In this document: piece after piece, positions 1,487 through 9,563 of the stretch
How positions within the stretch are numbered: position 1 is the first letter of the stretch
How the letters are laid out: each line of letters begins with the position of its first letter
Virus record (IMG/VR): IMGVR_UViG_3300025168_000001
Length of the DNA stretch: 64,000 nucleotides
DNA from: a virus
Strand: one strand, 5' to 3'
Position numbers and translations under genes: made by a program
Notes under the pieces: generated by a model
Told to the model about the DNA's origin: nothing
Databases searched by the model: none
What the model saw: only the letters and a program-made list of their open reading frames with translations

Positions 1487-1586
1487 AATATAGCGAGTAT
1501 CGTGGACCAGCGCTCACAGTAAATGGTATTGACTACCGTTTACTTGGGTATTGCTGTTCTTCTAATAAATATGAATACATTATTAT

Positions 1587-1871
1587 ATGAAAAGAAATAA
1601 GATCTTTATTAAAAGCATCATTAGTCTGATAATGTCTATATTCTTCGGAATTGCAACTGTCATACTATTAGTAATGCTAATATATGCACTAGTTACAGCT
1701 GGTGTATATGATGAAGCCCAAACATTGGGCAGAGTAGCTCTCATGGGTATGGGAGTAGCAATATCATTTATTATATCTGTATCTTTCGTAAGATATAGCG
1801 AGAAATTACAGCGATCATTTGACTATGGGGCGTACAAACGACTCAGAAACAAAGCAACCTGGCAGAAATAA
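1587..1871 (+). CDS. small membrane protein (two predicted TM helices)
   Basis: 94 aa. Hydrophobic stretches IISLIMSIFFGIATVILLVMLIYALV and VALMGMGVAISFIISVSFV, with a basic C-terminus. Confidence 0.55.
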   Translation: MKRNKIFIKSIISLIMSIFFGIATVILLVMLIYALVTAGVYDEAQTLGRVALMGMGVAISFIISVSFVRYSEKLQRSFDYGAYKRLRNKATWQK

Positions 1872-2643
1872 TACAATCAATAAACTCGTCATAGCGAGTA
1901 TAAATAGACTTTAGGCTATGAGCGTCAAGGTGTTACAACCTTGGGTAGTGGGCTTGGCCCGATAAGTACAGCAATGTACCTAATGACAATTACTGCACGC
2001 ATGAACAGTAATTGTTGCCATTATTTATAATGGTCAAACCAAGCAAGCAGGATACTACACGGCACCAATGGACGAATGTCTGAGGGTATGTGTATCTCTT
2101 CTTTTAGTTGGAGGGATGAGCTAGCGATAGCAATAGGAAATAACTGTAGATTTAGTTCTGAGTTAACTGTCAAGTTAATAAAGAGTATAAGTCAGTATGA
2201 TGGGCAATCTTAGGGAATAAGATATAACCTGAAATACTATAACGATGAAAAGTTGTACCTAGGATGTATTGTATTTTGTCTTTCAAAAGAAGACGAAGCA
2301 ATTGTGGACCAACCACATCCTGGAAAGTAAATGCATAACAATAACTAAAAGAACAAGTGTTGGCCTGTTACTCCCGAAAGGTGACTAAATCTCTGCTTGA
2401 CAGAGAGTGGATGATTCCTCAAGATGATTCTGTTTGCGAGTAAAAGACTGATATAGAGTTTAGCGGCTTTATATTACGTTCGAGTAATTCGTGAGTAAGT
2501 AGTAACATTAGAAGTGGTTAGTCTAACTAACCGTCACTGCACATTACTATTGGAGACAATAGTGGATATGTTGTTAACCTTAAGGAGGAACTAAACAACT
2601 AAAGATGTGTGTATAATGGTGTAATCTCAGCCCATTATATTTT
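1872..2643 (+). ncRNA. candidate large structured non-coding RNA (~770 nt)
   Basis: No ORF >=60 aa on either strand. G+C is locally ~50% (31/60 in 1921-1980). Helices: 1889-1895/1915-1921 and 1926-1930/1939-1943. Four-way junction 1952-2044: closing helix 1952-1957/2039-2044 and hairpins 1966-1979, 1986-2015 (perfect 10 bp) and 2018-2033. Helix 2096-2101/2110-2115 needs U-G wobbles, so it is + strand only. GCGA-loop hairpin 2120-2131; 2516-2521/2527-2532; GAGA-loop hairpin 2546-2563. Terminal hairpin 2613-2620/2632-2639 is followed by TTTT. Confidence 0.4.
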
Positions 2644-2648
2644 AAACT

Positions 2649-2768
2649 ATGAATAAAGTTAAACTTATTCGAAGACTTAGATGGGAGCTTGCACAACGTA
2701 AGCGTACAATCCTATTACACAGAGTAGTCATCTGTATTCTTATCTTAATCCTAGTATTCATTTACTAG
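2649..2768 (+). CDS. possible 39-aa tail-anchored membrane peptide
   Basis: ATG 2649 to TAG 2766-2768: MNKVKLIRRLRWELAQRKRTILLHRVVICILILILVFIY (basic N-half, hydrophobic C-half). Below the ORF-track size cut-off. Confidence 0.3.
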   Translation: MNKVKLIRRLRWELAQRKRTILLHRVVICILILILVFIY

Positions 2769-2805
2769 GGTTAAGAGTATTTATTAACTTAATTAAACAA
2801 TTACT

Positions 2806-3342
2806 ATGGGGAAAACCAGGTACAACCATGACGCAAACTCTCTTGGAGAGTCAGTTGGATTCGATAGAGACCAACAAAAAGAGATCATTAAATGTTTTAA
2901 TGACTCGTTAAATGAATTCGATGAAGATGAAGCTGCTAAATCAGCAATATTAGAAAGAACTATTACTTTAGCTATACAACGAGGGTTACTTAAAGATCAT
3001 GAAGACTTTTTCTTTGCTGCATTCTTTTTGTCTGAGTTTATAACAAGAAGACTAGTAGAAAGTGATAATGATGAAGAAGGGCCTAGAGTTGCGAAAACTT
3101 TGAAAGCTATTGCAAGTCAATTTGCTAAGCAGATGAGAAAGAGAGGTATAGAGTTAGATGATTTACCTTTAGATGATATGATAAATGAAGTTAAAGGTGA
3201 CATGGAAGATTTTGATAGTGGAAACACAGCAGATCTACGGGACCCTGATGACCTTTCTAAACTCATGTCAATGGATACTGGTGACATAATAAACAAAAAG
3301 AAACTAGTAGCACATATGGAATCAGATACAAATGACTTTTAA
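2806..3342 (+). CDS. hypothetical acidic early protein
   Basis: 178-aa ATG ORF, D/E-rich, no recognised motif. Confidence 0.6.
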   Translation: MGKTRYNHDANSLGESVGFDRDQQKEIIKCFNDSLNEFDEDEAAKSAILERTITLAIQRGLLKDHEDFFFAAFFLSEFITRRLVESDNDEEGPRVAKTLKAIASQFAKQMRKRGIELDDLPLDDMINEVKGDMEDFDSGNTADLRDPDDLSKLMSMDTGDIINKKKLVAHMESDTNDF

Positions 3343-3402: not shown

Positions 3403-3855
3403 ATGGCAAACAAATCAATCAGTAAGACCCAGGGAATTAGCAAAATACTCAAAAACAGTAACAGTGTTCTAAAAGAATTAGAAACTGCTGATAAGTATAG
3501 CGAACAACTGGACAGTCTTGCACGTCTATCACTTGAACAGGAAGACGTTAAAATAGATGTTCAAATTTATGTTAAGGTAACACCTAAACACACAGAAGAA
3601 AGCAATGTAGCAGGGCCTGGAGACTTACTTAAAGCTTTAAAGAACTCTAAAAACCCTGAAGACTTTGTTGATGCACTTAGTAATATAGATGAATCTATAC
3701 ATGACCACAAAGATGGTCATAGTGATCCAAAATATTATGAAGCTAACCTTGACAATGTAGATAACTCTACCTTTCTATGTGTTGTTGATAAACTACTTCA
3801 ACATTACAAATCACGCAGTACTAATTTATTAACCAAATTAAAATCTTTACTATGA
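3403..3855 (+). CDS. hypothetical early protein
   Basis: 150-aa ATG ORF. Its stop overlaps the next start (ATGA), suggesting translational coupling. Confidence 0.6.
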   Translation: MANKSISKTQGISKILKNSNSVLKELETADKYSEQLDSLARLSLEQEDVKIDVQIYVKVTPKHTEESNVAGPGDLLKALKNSKNPEDFVDALSNIDESIHDHKDGHSDPKYYEANLDNVDNSTFLCVVDKLLQHYKSRSTNLLTKLKSLL

Positions 3856-4217: not shown

Positions 4218-4263
4218 CAATTCCCTTGGATAGGTTATCTAACGATAACTTGTGTGATTGTTC

Positions 4264-4303
4264 GCTTATGACGGGGCTTCGGCCTTGTTATAAGCTTTTT
4301 TTT
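4264..4303 (+). terminator. intrinsic terminator
   Basis: 14-bp stem 4264-4277/4282-4295 (three G-U pairs, + strand only), UUCG loop 4278-4281, then T8 (4296-4303). It ends 4 nt before the tmRNA 5' end. Confidence 0.75.
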
Positions 4304-4307
4304 ATAC

Positions 4308-4703
4308 GGGGGTGACATGGCTTTGACATTCTGATGGAAGTATAAATGGCAAGCAACGATGCTTTTTAACTGGCGAAAATAGTTATTCTAAAGTCGCTAA
4401 GTTCTTCCCTAGAGGGAATGGATTTATCGCTAGTGCTCTACCACTACAAAGTGTAGAACTTGCAGTAGCTGCTTAGGTAGTTATTTCGAAAGTGTTTTTT
4501 GGTAATTTGTCACTTAATACAAAGATGGCCTAATTAGCTCTAGGAGCTTCAGGTCTGTTTCGCTTGACTAAGCGAAATACCGTAGTAAAGAGAGCACGTA
4601 AGTAATGTGTAACTCTAGAAAAATATAGTCAATTACTTAAAAGCTTGTACATCTATTTATGTGGATACAGTATGGACGTGGGTTCGAAACCCACCACCTC
4701 CAC
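4308..4703 (+). ncRNA. ssrA: tmRNA (transfer-messenger RNA)
   Basis: Acceptor stem GGGGGUG (4308-4314) pairs with CACCUCC (4695-4701), including a G3:U70 wobble. T-arm GUGGG-UUCGAAA-CCCAC (4678-4694); discriminator A4702. The 5' GGCUUUGACA resembles the conserved tmRNA box. P2-like helix 4340-4349/4653-4662. Tag ORF 4372-4473 plus TAG 4474-4476 encodes GENSYSKVAKFFPRGNGFIASALPLQSVELAVAA. Confidence 0.9.
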
Positions 4704-4731
4704 TTTTTATTAACTATTTAAAACTATTATT

Positions 4732-5295
4732 ATGGGATTTGATCTACACGGGGTGGCACCTAAAATTAACCAGCCAGAGCCTAAGATTTTAAAAGACAAT
4801 CATTGGTCTACTGTTACTCCAGATCTTAGAGAAGCTTATACGATTGCTTGGGATGAACATGAAAAAGTTAATCCTGGTATATATTTTAGAAACAATGCAT
4901 GGTGGTGGAGACCACTATGGACATATGTATGTAATATATGTCATGATATATTAACTCAAAAAGATATGGTTAAAGGTACTTGGAATAACTTTGATACTAT
5001 ATCTAAAACTAAAGGTATTAAGATAGCTGCACGTATAATGAAAGAGAATAAGAGTGGTGCTCTTGATAAGTATGCTCAAGGGTATGAAGAAGCTATTGCT
5101 AAACTAGATAAAGAAGATTGTATGCATTGTAACGGCACAGGTAAACGTGATGATGAACATGTAAAAGGAAAATGTAATGGTTGCGAAGGAACAGGTAAAC
5201 GTGAGGCATGGGCTGCATCATATCCTTTTAGTGTGGAAAATGCGTTACAGTTTGCAAAGTTTGCAAAAGAATCGGGTGGATTTCAAATATCTTAA
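4732..5295 (+). CDS. protein with DnaJ-type CxxCxGxG zinc-finger repeats
   Basis: 187 aa. Contains CMHCNGTGKRDDEHVKGKCNGCEGTGKRE, i.e. two CxxCxGxG units as in the DnaJ cysteine-rich domain. No J-domain HPD motif seen. Confidence 0.65.
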   Translation: MGFDLHGVAPKINQPEPKILKDNHWSTVTPDLREAYTIAWDEHEKVNPGIYFRNNAWWWRPLWTYVCNICHDILTQKDMVKGTWNNFDTISKTKGIKIAARIMKENKSGALDKYAQGYEEAIAKLDKEDCMHCNGTGKRDDEHVKGKCNGCEGTGKREAWAASYPFSVENALQFAKFAKESGGFQIS

Positions 5296-5310: not shown

Positions 5311-5754
5311 ATGAACAAAATTTATGACGAGACGCAAAGCATTAATAAATTATTTAGAATAGTTACTAATGTATTCGGCATTTCAAAGCAAGAGATGATA
5401 TCTAGAACTAGAAAGAGAGCGTATGTAGAATCTAAAACTATGTTTGCTGTTATTGCTAGAGAAAAATTATTATTAAGTACAGTAGAAGTAGGTGATCTTT
5501 TAAATAGAGATCATAGTTCTATTATACATTATAGCAGGACACACAAAGATCTATATAAAGTAGACAAGACTTATAGAAGAATGTTTGATCTTATAAGTAA
5601 TACCTTTACTGATAAACCATTTATGGCTGATAAATTATTAACTGTAGATGACAAATTAAGTATAGCGCATATTAAAATTGATACTTTACAAGTAGAAAAT
5701 GAACAATTACGTGATGCAATGACTCTTATAAAAGAGGCAGTACTTACGTATTAA
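5311..5754 (+). CDS. stand-alone DnaA domain IV-like helix-turn-helix protein
   Basis: SRTRKRAYVESKTMFAVIAREKLLLSTVEVGDLLNRDHSSIIHYSRTH follows the DnaA C-terminal DNA-binding pattern (R.R..v.aRqiamYl.re....s...IG..f..rDHstV.ha). The track start at 5302 is TTG; the first ATG is 5311. Confidence 0.6.
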   Translation: MNKIYDETQSINKLFRIVTNVFGISKQEMISRTRKRAYVESKTMFAVIAREKLLLSTVEVGDLLNRDHSSIIHYSRTHKDLYKVDKTYRRMFDLISNTFTDKPFMADKLLTVDDKLSIAHIKIDTLQVENEQLRDAMTLIKEAVLTY

Positions 5755-5998: not shown

Positions 5999-6520
5999 AT
6001 GGTAACTAACGAGGTGGCTAAGTTTAAACTTAGAGTATTAAAACATGTATCTAACGTAGTAAAGGGTGGAGTAGAATTACCTCCTGTTATGTATGTTAGA
6101 ACAAGTAAAGGCAAATTTAAAATTATGCCTGTAGCTCCACAATTAATGGCAGAAAAAGAACTACGAGATAAATGTAGAGAAATTATGCAACACATGCTAA
6201 CTTTAGCGAAGGCTGATCTTGTGTGTTTTGTATCAGAAGCGTATGTTTCATCTATTCGTAGAGATGAGATGAGCCCAGAAGAACTAAGAAGGGCAGAAGC
6301 AGGGCGCCCAAGTAGAGAAGATTACAAAAAGGCAACTAAGAATCGTACAGAATGTATATTTTTGAGCTTTGAAACTAAGGGATTACCGAGAGAAAATGAG
6401 CTTATGACTTTCAAAGTTGAAAACAAATCATTACAACCTCATCATTTGATGTCAGAAATGGAGAATTCTGGTGTAGTAGGAAACGCACAAGGTAATTTTC
6501 AAAATCTATTTGAACAATGA
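5999..6520 (+). CDS. hypothetical protein
   Basis: 173-aa ATG ORF. Its stop overlaps the polymerase start (ATGA). No motif recognised. Confidence 0.6.
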   Translation: MVTNEVAKFKLRVLKHVSNVVKGGVELPPVMYVRTSKGKFKIMPVAPQLMAEKELRDKCREIMQHMLTLAKADLVCFVSEAYVSSIRRDEMSPEELRRAEAGRPSREDYKKATKNRTECIFLSFETKGLPRENELMTFKVENKSLQPHHLMSEMENSGVVGNAQGNFQNLFEQ

Positions 6521-8367
6521 TAAATTATATAGGACCCGAAAGAAATATTCCTTCGGAACATTATAAAGTAGCAACTATTGAAGATGCGGTTAGCTACTGT
6601 AAAGACAAAAAGTATCTAGGTGTAGATACTGAAACAGAAGGATTAGACTTCCAAACAAAGAGAATGCTAATGCTTCAAATAGGAGACGATAACGAACAAT
6701 TTGTTATTGACACAAGACACGTAAGTATTGAACCTTTACGTGACATTTTAGAATCAAACTCTATAATAAAGATTCTACATAATGTCAAATTTGATTATAA
6801 AGTTATTAAAAGGTGGGGTAATATTACTATGAATGGATGTTGGGATACTATGTTAGTGGACCAAATTATTCATTGTGGTAAATTTACTTTACGATATTCT
6901 TTAAAGGAGCTTTGTAAGCGCTACCTACAGGTAGACTTAAACAAAGACGTTAGAAACCAATTCGTTGGTTTAGAAGGCGAACCCTTTAAAGACGATCAAA
7001 TAGTATATGGTGCTAAAGATGTAGAGTATCTATGTTTTATAAGGAATGCTCAAGAGCAAACACTCATAAAACATAAATTAGAAGACGTTGCAGAGTTAGA
7101 AAACACTGCAAGTTTAGCTTTAGCAGACATAGAATTTAATGGCTTTAAATTGGATACAGAACAATGGAGTAATATAGCGAAGGATTCCAAAGACGAAATG
7201 ATTAAGTATGAAGACACATTAGATCAATTAGTTATGGCAGATCCAAGGTTATCTAGTTTTGTTAATCCAAATGTACAGACACAATTATTTACAGCAACAG
7301 AAGATATTAGAAAAATTATGGTTAAATGGTCTAGTCCTACACAAGTATTAAGAGTATTCAAAATTTTAGTACCTGATTTAGAAAATGTAAATGGAAAAGA
7401 ACTGATAAATTATAGAACTCACGGATTAATAAATAACTATGTAAAGTATAAAGAGAAAGCAAAGCTTGCTACTTCATATGGTATAGAATTCTTAAAGAAT
7501 ATTGGAGCAGATGGTAAGATTCATACTAGATTTAATCAAGTATTAAATACTGGTAGAATTGCTAGTAACTCTCCAAATATGCAGCAGATACCTGCAGACA
7601 ATAAGTTTAGACATTGTTTTATACCTGATGAAAATCAAGTACTAGTATCTGCCGATTATAGTTCTCAGGAATTATGTATTATAGCGACAGGATCTAAGGA
7701 CCCTGTTTGGTTAAAAATTCTAGAAGAAGGCGGTGACTTACACAGTGAGTGCGCAGATCTAGTATTTCAAGACAAATGGAGAGAAGCTGATGAAAAAGGT
7801 AAGAAAAAGTTGCGTACTAACGTAAAAACCATTAACTTTGGCCTCGCTTATGGCATGGGTCCATTTAAATTAGCAAACACTTTACAGATAAGTACAGAAG
7901 AAGCACAGATACTAATAGATAAATATTTTAGTGTATTCCCCTCAATTAAAAAGTTTCTAAATAGTCTAGGAAATTACGGAAAACGATACGGTCACATTAA
8001 AACCTTTGCGCCTTTCAGAAGGATCAGATGGTTTGAAGATTGGTTCCCTGGTATGGGATTCAGTTCAGGAGACATGAAGGTGTTAGGTTCAATTGAACGT
8101 GCATCTAAAAATACTCCTATTCAAGGTACAGGTGCTGACATGACTAAACTTGCATTGGCTTTCTTACGAAAGAGAATACAAGATGACAACTTACCAGTTA
8201 AGTTAGTTATGACAGTACATGATCAAATTGATACAATGTGTCCAACAGATTACTCCACAGAATGGTCAGAAATTTTAAGTTACGAAATGGAAAGAGCTGC
8301 AGAGCTTATTTTAAATAATAAGTTATTGAAAGCTGAACCTAGTATTAATTCAAAATGGGAAAAATGA
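6517..8367 (+). CDS. polA: family A DNA polymerase with 3'-5' exonuclease domain
   Basis: Exonuclease motifs: GVDTETEGL (ExoI), ILHNVKFDY (ExoII), YGAKDVEYL (ExoIII). Polymerase motifs: VSADYSSQELCI (A), RTNVKTINFGLAYGMG (B), MTVHDQID (C). Confidence 0.92.
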   Translation: MINYIGPERNIPSEHYKVATIEDAVSYCKDKKYLGVDTETEGLDFQTKRMLMLQIGDDNEQFVIDTRHVSIEPLRDILESNSIIKILHNVKFDYKVIKRWGNITMNGCWDTMLVDQIIHCGKFTLRYSLKELCKRYLQVDLNKDVRNQFVGLEGEPFKDDQIVYGAKDVEYLCFIRNAQEQTLIKHKLEDVAELENTASLALADIEFNGFKLDTEQWSNIAKDSKDEMIKYEDTLDQLVMADPRLSSFVNPNVQTQLFTATEDIRKIMVKWSSPTQVLRVFKILVPDLENVNGKELINYRTHGLINNYVKYKEKAKLATSYGIEFLKNIGADGKIHTRFNQVLNTGRIASNSPNMQQIPADNKFRHCFIPDENQVLVSADYSSQELCIIATGSKDPVWLKILEEGGDLHSECADLVFQDKWREADEKGKKKLRTNVKTINFGLAYGMGPFKLANTLQISTEEAQILIDKYFSVFPSIKKFLNSLGNYGKRYGHIKTFAPFRRIRWFEDWFPGMGFSSGDMKVLGSIERASKNTPIQGTGADMTKLALAFLRKRIQDDNLPVKLVMTVHDQIDTMCPTDYSTEWSEILSYEMERAAELILNNKLLKAEPSINSKWEK

Positions 8368-9563
8368 TTCAAACAGATTTATTTAACGAACAAAAAGATG
8401 AACTTCAATTAGAACATCTAGATGCTTGGGTCTCGAATGGTTACAAAGGTACTTCTATTGCTGCTACTGGTCTTGGTAAAACTAGGATTGGTATTTTAGC
8501 AATTAAAAATACTTTAGGAAAAGATTCTAACAAGTCGGCATGTGTAATTGTGCCTACTGAGAATCTTAGAGACAATGAATGGGTTAAAGAATTCCATACT
8601 TGGAATTTAGAACATTTATTACCACAAGTAGAATTCATGTGTATACAATCTGCATATAAACTTGCAGGACATCATTGGGATATCGTTGTTGTAGACGAGG
8701 TACACACTACCTTATCTACATCATATAGAAATTTCTATGAAAATAATCTTTGGGAAAGGATGTATTGCTTCACAGCAACGCCTCCTGAAAACGAAGAGTA
8801 TTTTAATTATTTACATGAACACGCCCCTATTATTAAAACAACCAATTTAAATGAGGCGAGAAAACTGGGGATTGTGTCCCCTTATACAGTGTATAATTTA
8901 GGTGTTAGTTTTACACCTGAAGAAGCACTAGAATATAATAGAGTAGATAAGCTTCTTCAAGATTGTACAGATGAACTCGGTGGACCTTTTAATGCATTTA
9001 AAAATGCAAGTAAATTTATGAAATCGAGTAATCATCCTAAGAAGAAGATATCTATTATATATTATAAGATGATGAATAAAAGGAAACAAATGTGTTTTAA
9101 TGCATTTAGTAAATTAGTATTAGTTAAGAAATTAACTGATAAGTTTCCTAATAGGAAAACATTAATCTTTAGCGAAAGCATAGAGTTTGCTGAGCAAATT
9201 CAAACAGTAATTGGATCTGATTGTTCCGTATTTCATAGTAAAATGCATAAGAACGATCGTAAAGATACTCTTGAAAAGTTTGGAGAAGAGAAAGGTGTTA
9301 GAATATTAAGTTCCGTTAAAGCGTTAAATGCAGGTCTTAATGTGCCAGATTGTTCTTTAGGAATATGTGTTGCTGGCAGTTCAAAAGCCCTAGACAGTAT
9401 TCAAAGAACAGGTCGTACATTAAGATTAAAAAATGGCAAGAAAGCAATTTATGTGAACTTATACATCAAAGGAACACAAGAACTAAAATGGGTTAGAAAG
9501 AGAGTAAAAAGTGATTACACAGTGAAATGGATAGATGATATAAGCGAAATTATTAATTTATAA
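8355..9563 (+). CDS. superfamily 2 DEAD/DEAH-box helicase
   Basis: AATGLGKT (Walker A), VVVDEVH (motif II), FTATP (III), QRTGRTLR (VI). Confidence 0.85.
   Translation: MGKMIQTDLFNEQKDELQLEHLDAWVSNGYKGTSIAATGLGKTRIGILAIKNTLGKDSNKSACVIVPTENLRDNEWVKEFHTWNLEHLLPQVEFMCIQSAYKLAGHHWDIVVVDEVHTTLSTSYRNFYENNLWERMYCFTATPPENEEYFNYLHEHAPIIKTTNLNEARKLGIVSPYTVYNLGVSFTPEEALEYNRVDKLLQDCTDELGGPFNAFKNASKFMKSSNHPKKKISIIYYKMMNKRKQMCFNAFSKLVLVKKLTDKFPNRKTLIFSESIEFAEQIQTVIGSDCSVFHSKMHKNDRKDTLEKFGEEKGVRILSSVKALNAGLNVPDCSLGICVAGSSKALDSIQRTGRTLRLKNGKKAIYVNLYIKGTQELKWVRKRVKSDYTVKWIDDISEIINL

Follow-up and report, generated by a model that had tools for sequence, protein, structure and literature searches.

A pistol ribozyme at the start of a GOLLD RNA in an uncultured phage and its likely part in forming the 5' end of that RNA

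In the 64,000-nt stretch of viral DNA analyzed here (IMG/VR record IMGVR_UViG_3300025168_000001; hereafter the window, whose positions serve as coordinates throughout), a GOLLD RNA, of the family reportedly described by Weinberg et al. in 2009, is directly preceded by a pistol self-cleaving ribozyme, of the class said to have been described by Weinberg in 2015. GOLLD RNAs have a separate, less conserved 5' domain (PMC12286853, PMC12990946), and in cryo-electron microscopy the 833-nt env-38 GOLLD forms a 14-mer and the 700-nt S. agalactiae GOLLD a 12-mer (PMC12286853, PMC12990946). The pistol consensus consists of three stems and a pseudoknot that joins the P1 loop to the P2-P3 junction, with 10 highly conserved nucleotides (Rfam RF02679), and cleavage falls inside the P3-P2 dinucleotide, which is usually GU, variable in identity and fixed in length (Harris et al. 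2015, PMC4604425). [quoted passage not shown] We consider it probable that the locus described here is a tandem of a pistol ribozyme (1884-1950) and a GOLLD RNA (~1946-2640) in which the ribozyme frees the GOLLD RNA.

Membership in the two families was established by covariance models. A scan of the whole window at the Rfam gathering thresholds gave three matches, to GOLLD, pistol and transfer-messenger RNA (tmRNA), all on the + strand, and a permissive scan (E<=1) of 1500-3000 gave nothing beyond GOLLD and pistol. The conserved 3' domain of GOLLD (RF02032) was found at 2259-2633 (+) with 211.7 bits, 60 bits over the gathering score of 150, in an untruncated alignment to positions 1-416 of the 416-position model (E 1.9e-58). 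This alignment carries the signature blocks GAAAGGUGACUAA, GUGGUUAGUCUAACUAACCGUCACUG and GGUGUAAUCUCAGCC, the region of the second block reading GUGGUU..CUAAC.AACCGUCACUG as in the GOLLD signature, and all but two positions of the 10-bp long-range GOLLD pseudoknot are paired. Besides the pseudoknot strands, the domain includes a short linker (2330-2370), a GAGA-capped hairpin (2545-2564) and the terminal hairpin. A first-pass annotation, made by a model from the letters alone, had placed the region in the class of GOLLD and ROOL and had proposed a search with the corresponding Rfam models; the class was borne out as GOLLD, while ROOL, HEARO, OLE, raiA and group I/II introns gave no gathering-level match in the window and none at E<=1 in 1500-3000. 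The GOLLD identity is near certain from these matches, and that both elements are what their models say is very highly probable.

The first 67 nt of the element (1884-1950, +) had been overlooked as a separate feature in the annotation, which described a single RNA of ~770 nt. They match the pistol model (RF02679) with 67.6 bits, the gathering score being 34.5, over positions 1-68 of 68 (E 3.6e-10 across the whole window), and each highly conserved consensus nucleotide is matched. P1 (1884-1887/1896-1899, ACUC/GAGU) is paired at 4/4 positions, the pseudoknot (1890-1895 with 1915-1920, CAUAGC/GCUAUG) at 6/6 and P2 (1907-1910/1947-1950, GACU/AGUG) at 3/4, and P3 (1925-1944) has 7 bp. The ribozyme thus shares with described pistols the full consensus, the phage setting, all three stems, the 6-bp pseudoknot and a 2-nt GU junction between P3 and P2. 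This junction is G1945-U1946, and by the dinucleotide rule of Harris et al. (PMC4604425) the predicted scissile bond is therefore G1945/U1946. What differs is the 3' product, here a defined giant non-coding RNA and not an mRNA. The annotation was right to see on the + strand a non-coding RNA that is large and ornate and is borne by a phage; what it described as one RNA is a ribozyme plus an RNA of ~695 nt. The strand was also given correctly, as both Rfam matches and all flanking open reading frames (ORFs) are on the + strand.

Between the ribozyme and the 3' domain lies a segment of ~313 nt (1946-2258, +), recognized by its homology to the 5' domains of other loci and by covariation. Since the Rfam model spans only the universally conserved 3' domain and a separate 5' domain is described in the literature, we assign this segment as the GOLLD 5' domain, in a shortened variant. 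The order in the interval is thus pistol (1884-1950), 5' domain (1946-2258), 3' domain (2259-2633), and an extension of the terminal hairpin with a U tract, to 2643. Homologous 5' domains were found in at least 14 distinct sequences (nhmmer E 1e-100 to 1e-39) from fetched viral and metagenomic loci, which carry L numbers below and for which counts within this clade are lower bounds. Among these at least 14 distinct members, homology begins at GGGGCUU (window ~1949-1952), and the sequence farther upstream is unrelated. The predicted cut sits 3-6 nt ahead of the start of homology, and because it lies so close to a conserved boundary, we infer that the ribozyme frees the ~695-nt GOLLD RNA from an mRNA.

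The arrangement of a pistol next to this 5' domain recurs in three other lineages, namely L538, L035/L335/L350/L473 and L125, which establishes the junction as a repeated feature of relatives. In L538 the pistol scores 69.1 bits and the GOLLD 224.5 bits, and the junction GGGUAGUGGGCUUGG is identical; in the L035/L335/L350/L473 lineage the scores are 69.4 bits and 197.9-215.9 bits. L125 has a pistol of 74.7 bits with the same 6-nt spacing, and this locus ends inside the 5' domain. Among the four pistol-GOLLD sequences the ribozyme helices change in a compensatory manner: P1 occurs as ACUC/GAGU and AGUC/GACU, the pseudoknot as CAUAGC/GCUAUG, CAGAGC/GCUCUG and CUGAGC/GCUCAG, and P3 as four different stems. 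L538 and, from the L035 group, L473 have pistol, GOLLD and tmRNA in the same order as the window. Across the at least 14 lineages of the clade, the upstream flank holds a pistol in 4, an unknown structured element in 6, a third kind of leader in 1 and no module in 3.

In the processing that we propose, an operon beginning after the terminator-like hairpin at 1208-1237, the closest such hairpin upstream, would be transcribed through small ORFs into the ribozyme. The last of these, a 94-aa ORF (1587-1871, +; taken from the ORF list), ends 12 nt before the ribozyme, and its mRNA is presumed to be the co-transcribed source from which the GOLLD RNA is cut. L035 and L538 have a homologue of this ORF ahead of their pistols, and a scan of the window sequence found no promoter-like site between the ORF and the ribozyme. 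The pistol would fold and cut itself between G1945 and U1946, leaving a 2',3'-cyclic phosphate on the upstream mRNA and freeing an RNA of ~695 nt with a 5'-OH just 3-6 nt before its first helix. As P2 has only 3 bp, the product should dissociate readily. A 5'-OH may guard an RNA against 5'-monophosphate-dependent decay. The 3' end would form at the terminal hairpin with its U tract (2613-2643) or just past it, the other candidate being the terminator-like site at 2743-2776. If it behaves like the env-38 14-mer and the S. agalactiae 12-mer, the freed RNA would then assemble into a closed homo-oligomeric cage, with the 3' domains as ring and the 5' domains as caps. A role of the pistol in 5'-end maturation of the GOLLD RNA, through the cleavage predicted from its sequence, is in our judgment moderately likely.

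In the strongest competing explanation it is the upstream mRNA that the pistol serves: as one among many cutters set by phages between cistrons, it would fix the 3' end or half-life of the transcript of the small ORFs at 1286-1871, and the adjacent GOLLD would be incidental. This is unlikely, though it has some merit. Processing of polycistronic transcripts is the leading general idea for the self-cleaving ribozymes of bacteria and phages (PMC6765202), and elsewhere pistols lie between ORFs with no GOLLD near, as with four in L162, three in L167 and two, together with a twister, in L193. Set against it are the position of the cut, which in three of the four lineages comes within 3-6 nt of the conserved 5' boundary of GOLLD, and the occupation of the same spot in sister loci by a promoter-like tract or another structured module. 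The two roles are compatible, since one cut makes both ends.

Several observations weigh against a dedicated role of the ribozyme in freeing the GOLLD RNA. P2, minimal for a pistol, has merely 3 Watson-Crick pairs and a G.G mismatch. Cleavage in the L035 lineage would give the RNA ~55 nt of leader, with AU in place of GU as the scissile dinucleotide. There is synteny among the window, L538 and the L035 group, whose flanks are 72-82% identical, and they are one phage lineage and not independent inventions; the linkage may therefore stem from one origin, and the count of lineages overstates their independence. In L042 the GOLLD abuts an ORF, with no module, and 20 confirmed GOLLD loci outside the clade, which carry tRNAs, sometimes within the RNA, and tmRNAs, have no Rfam ribozyme of any class, from which it follows that GOLLD in general needs no ribozyme. 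Conversely, of the pistol-bearing loci among 17 scanned, just L035 and L125 have GOLLD sequence, and several pistol loci have tandem pistols ~500 nt apart between ORFs. These tandem pistols without GOLLD mark the class as general cutters of phage transcripts that are not specific to GOLLD.

As to tandem pistols, L162 has copies at 520-599, 1064-1133, 1558-1635 and 1975-2051 on the same strand, L167 has copies at 4856-4915, 5333-5408 and 6457-6535, also on the same strand, and L193 has copies at 3047-3118 and 7195-7269 plus a twister-P5 at 3520-3596. The same-strand tandems suggest operon transcripts cut into single-gene pieces. The pattern scan for the pistol core gave mostly chance hits, and ~27 true pistols were retained by a stricter regular expression; likewise, about two-thirds of the hits in a scan of viral contigs with a 14-nt motif of the GOLLD 3' domain were due to chance, and ~41 of the 120 loci listed contained a GOLLD by profile search.

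Returning to the proposed release of the GOLLD RNA by the pistol, the flanks of the sister loci allow a wider reading. An AT-rich promoter-like tract abuts GGGGCUU in L312 and L520, two of the three lineages without a module, and in L312 a terminator hairpin precedes this tract. The 5' edge of the clade could be a docking site for interchangeable modules that make an end, an exact and unextended 5' end being needed for cage assembly; this is a tentative suggestion, which we hold to be possible and somewhat doubtful. If it is true, maturation of a cage-forming RNA would be the first concrete natural job for the pistol class.

In six lineages (L082, L114, L328, L078, L015 and L468) the place of the pistol is taken by an element of ~190 nt, for which the L082 copy gave no Rfam match at E<=10. 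The last 57 nt of the element comprise a 7-bp P1, a 5-nt P2 strand, AA, a GCC/GGC P3 with the loop UUGACGU, the P1 return, CU, UUAAA, CUAAUU and the P2 return. The strands follow one another as in the nested double pseudoknot of HDV- and CPEB3-like ribozymes, but P4 is lacking, and P1 is closed by C-G in place of the G.U pair at the cleavage site. The J4/2 consensus is C-N-A-A-U-U and L3 is UUGACGU, which we take to be close to the CGAAUU and UUCACGU of the CPEB3 ribozyme, and the motif is absent from Rfam 15. In ten distinct copies, P1 is paired at 7/7 and P2 at 5/5 positions, and both helices covary, P1 occurring as six different sequences and P2 as four. Copies adjoin GOLLD in L082 (2612-2668, +), L114, L328, L078, L015 and L468/L475, and others lie away from GOLLD in L417 (4382-4440), L383/L451 and L443, or near a ROOL RNA in L445. 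The 57-nt motif could be a minimal self-cleaving ribozyme, and possibly a new variant; if it cleaves itself, two ribozyme classes would alternate at one GOLLD boundary. An alternative view of the upstream element as solely a sigma-70 promoter (TTGACA-N18/19-YAYAAT) was rejected, since four different pair types occur in a helix that runs across the "spacer".

A conserved structured leader of ~110 nt lies 5' of the motif in L082 (2497-2611, +), with equivalents in L114, L328, L078 and L015. Its closing helix (AGACUCU/AGAGUCU) is 7 bp long, an inner hairpin that covaries with the L298 group bears the conserved loop AAACUUUGAUUU, and the leader ends 4 nt ahead of the predicted HDV-like cut. Neither ARAGORN nor Rfam found a tRNA in the leader, which is possibly a small RNA that owes its 3' end to cleavage by the HDV-like motif. 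In L445, the ROOL RNA (7648-8229, -; 192.3 bits) lies in a tRNA array, and the motif copy (8535-8608, -) is located ~300 nt upstream on the same strand, with a mini P4 (GC-GUAA-GC) and the J4/2 CAAAUU. Between this copy and the ROOL RNA is a promoter-like TTGCAA-N17-TAAAAT.

Theta ribozymes set a precedent for a small phage ribozyme that trims an adjacent structured RNA, and bear in particular on the HDV-like motif of the sister loci. They cut at their own 5' end and free the 3' end of the upstream tRNA, whereas the pistol cuts near its own 3' end and would free the 5' end of the downstream RNA. GOLLD and ROOL loci flanked by tRNAs also have a processing signal next to the large RNA, as tRNA cuts by RNase P and RNase Z can define ends; in L041, L046, L109 and L110, a tRNA-Met follows 12-20 nt after the GOLLD 3' end. 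The signal in the window differs from these in being autocatalytic and on the 5' side, with a host enzyme unnecessary. ROOL (RF03087) itself is, like GOLLD, a large phage-associated, cage-forming RNA near tRNA genes; it is unrelated to the RNA described here in sequence and fold, and had no match in the window.

Measured against described GOLLD RNAs, the copy in the window shares the full conserved 3' domain with its pseudoknot, signature blocks and terminal hairpin, the separate and less conserved 5' domain, and the location in a phage genome near a tmRNA, and its ~695 nt compare with 700-833 nt for known examples. The surrounding genes belong to a phage replication module with DNA polymerase, helicases, primase and ribonucleotide reductase (PHROGs). 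It differs by the self-cleaving ribozyme fused to its 5' end and by a 5' domain of ~313 nt that opens with a four-way junction, as opposed to the 420 nt and three-way junction of env-38. The linker of the 3' domain is short and free of tRNA, and ARAGORN found 0 tRNA genes in the 64 kb, whereas GOLLD usually adjoins tRNA genes.

The opening junction of the 5' domain lies at 1952-2044 (+) and was identified by minimum-energy folding and covariation. A 6-bp closing helix (1952-1957/2039-2044) bears three hairpins (1966-1979, 1985-2016 and 2017-2034) with stems of 5, 11 and 7 bp and loops of 4 nt. The fold has an energy of -28.5 kcal/mol, compared with -15.8 +/- 3.0 for dinucleotide shuffles (z -4.25), and one as good appeared in 1/200 shuffles. 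The four-way junction seen in the first-pass annotation is exactly this minimum-energy fold, except that its long hairpin has 11 bp and not 10. The 5' domain also holds several hairpins farther on, including one capped by GCGA (2121-2130), and as a single sequence it folds with z -3.92 (z -4.29 for the whole element, 1884-2643). Both GNRA hairpins noted at the outset do exist: GAGA (2553-2556) caps an 8-bp stem, UACUAUUG/CAAUAGUG, although GCGA (2124-2127) caps merely 4 bp, GCUA/UAGC.

Covariation supports the structure of the 5' domain. In an alignment of 8 sequences, the RNAalifold consensus has 70 pairs, of which 26 have both sides changed, so that homologues with covarying helices, by which the annotation had wished to see the structure checked, were indeed found. 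Compensatory changes fall in the closing helix, in hairpins 1 and 2 and in the GYGA-capped hairpin; for example, GCUUGG/CCAAGC stands against GCCUGG/CCAGGC, and in the closing helix AU changes to GC at two positions. Fold and alignment identify the four-way junction as the opening multi-helix junction of the GOLLD 5' domain, a conserved RNA structure and not a tRNA. A tRNA or tRNA-like element embedded in the RNA, as in some GOLLD RNAs, is very improbable. The outline of the junction is cloverleaf-like, as the annotation had put it, and other GOLLD loci contain tRNAs ~320 nt from the 3' end (PMC12990946); such tRNAs, however, occupy the linker and not the 5' end. ARAGORN called no tRNA window-wide, the Rfam tRNA model (RF00005) gave nothing at E<=1, and the closing helix of 6 bp, the arms of 5, 11 and 7 bp and the 4-nt loops have the wrong lengths. 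We rejected the tRNA-like reading on these blanks and arm lengths, and part of the junction moreover aligns to the 5' end of env-38 (the AUAAGUAC-GNRA hairpin).

The comparison with env-38 used its 5' 460 nt, taken from the supplement of PMC12286853, and the likeness between the two 5' domains is restricted to colinear islands. These are an AUAA(G/A)UAC-GNRA hairpin, a hairpin with a GNRA cap and GCAAUARGAAUAACU after it, the sequence UAAGAUAAGAUA, and CGAUGAA directly ahead of the 3' domain. That only such short islands are held in common, and that the 5' domain has no Rfam model, are the two points in favor of a new family of giant structured RNAs unrelated to known ones, as the annotation had allowed. 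We give this idea almost no credence, and its suggestion was wrong: the Rfam GOLLD model is matched end to end and far past its gathering score, GOLLD is known to vary in its 5' domain (PMC12286853, PMC12990946), and the size of ~695 nt fits the 700-nt GOLLD of S. agalactiae. The new-family reading is thus refuted by the Rfam GOLLD matches.

That the stretch codes for small proteins and is not an RNA gene is scarcely credible and was likewise rejected: ORFs of 31-50 aa exist mechanically (2021-2173, 2076-2213, 2170-2316 and others), but two covariance-model matches span the region, and substitutions in relatives compensate within helices and not at third codon positions. When ORFs of 60 aa or more are counted on both strands, the widest gap in the window runs from 1872 to 2805 (934 nt), followed by 1-621 and 4218-4731, in agreement with the claim that the element lies in the longest ORF-free stretch. 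The G+C content of 1872-2643 is 37.4%, compared with 33.2% for the whole window, and reaches a maximum of 56% in 50 nt near 1914, so that "about 50% in places" was a fair description.

When 1872-2643 was searched by blastn against 50,697 phage records, the sole match was a 58-nt piece in an uncultured 635-kb phage, and no cultured relative was found among these records. No clade member was present among the 120 genome-contig matches listed, and they therefore give no clue to the host. As an RNA family the finding is ordinary, being another GOLLD of an uncultured low-G+C phage, with a trimmed variant of the cap domain that is within the known range of the family. Both GOLLD and pistol are already known, and the pistol at the start of a GOLLD is an architectural detail unreported in the searchable literature. 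There we found no link between the two, although an earlier description is possible; one paper names both, separately, and the GOLLD structural papers of 2025-2026 mention tRNAs, but not ribozymes or processing. What the locus adds is one pistol copy for which the sequence indicates both the substrate and the likely purpose, namely release of a giant non-coding RNA with a defined 5' end. GOLLD cages, whose subunit number (12 versus 14) is set by the 5' domain, serve as a structural model, and a variant of ~695 nt that would trim itself and has a different 5' domain could be a construct for studying end definition and cap architecture in assembly.

At the 3' side, the hairpin at 2613-2638 has a 7-bp stem and represents the helix, itself conserved, with which the GOLLD model ends. 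In its extended form (2613-2643, +), AUAAUGG/CCAUUAU encloses the conserved loop GUAAUCUCAG and is followed by AUUUU, and L035 has a comparable hairpin and then a U-rich tail. This had been described as a terminator; the hairpin and U tract are real, but the terminator scan, whose terminator-like sites are at 1208-1237, 2743-2776 and 4264-4295, does not call it, and it is instead the conserved GOLLD hairpin. It is a weak terminator at best, and 2613-2643 is the probable 3' end region. An ORF of 39 aa (2649-2768, +) starts 6 nt past the U tract of GOLLD and stops within the terminator-like hairpin at 2743-2776, and L312 is 81% identical over the first ~130 nt that follow GOLLD.

The tmRNA (RF00023; 4308-4705, +) scores 75.5 bits against a gathering score of 47 over model positions 1-374 of 374. 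It lies 1.7 kb downstream of GOLLD, outside the GOLLD RNA and as context only, and a tmRNA within a few kb of GOLLD is found in at least 7 other loci (L041, L020, L019, L109, L110, L538 and L473). The expectation of a nearby gene of tRNA type thus held for the tmRNA, though not for a tRNA proper, of which ARAGORN found none in the window; ARAGORN also misses the tmRNA called by Rfam at 4308-4705. A candidate for the in-frame tag (4372-4476), GENSYSKVAKFFPRGNGFIASALPLQSVELAVAA*, is unusually long and has the canonical ...AVAA end.

On the minus strand, 23224-55196 holds a run of five very large ORFs of 1355, 4177, 1043, 1888 and 2187 aa, and the 4177-aa product had no PHROG match at E<=1e-5. 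In the second-longest ORF-free stretch (1-621, +), which has a fold z of -3.44 and no match in Rfam, identity to the L035 lineage is 76% over positions 25-405. This stretch is probably a promoter or regulatory region and could be another RNA. It contains a near-invariant block at ~185-270, with a GGUCU-CAA-AGACC hairpin and the extended -10-like sequence TGATATAAT, and a 35-nt motif, CCAAATTCAATCACTCTAACTAGTTATTGCACATTAA, at 129-165, of which L035 has two copies.

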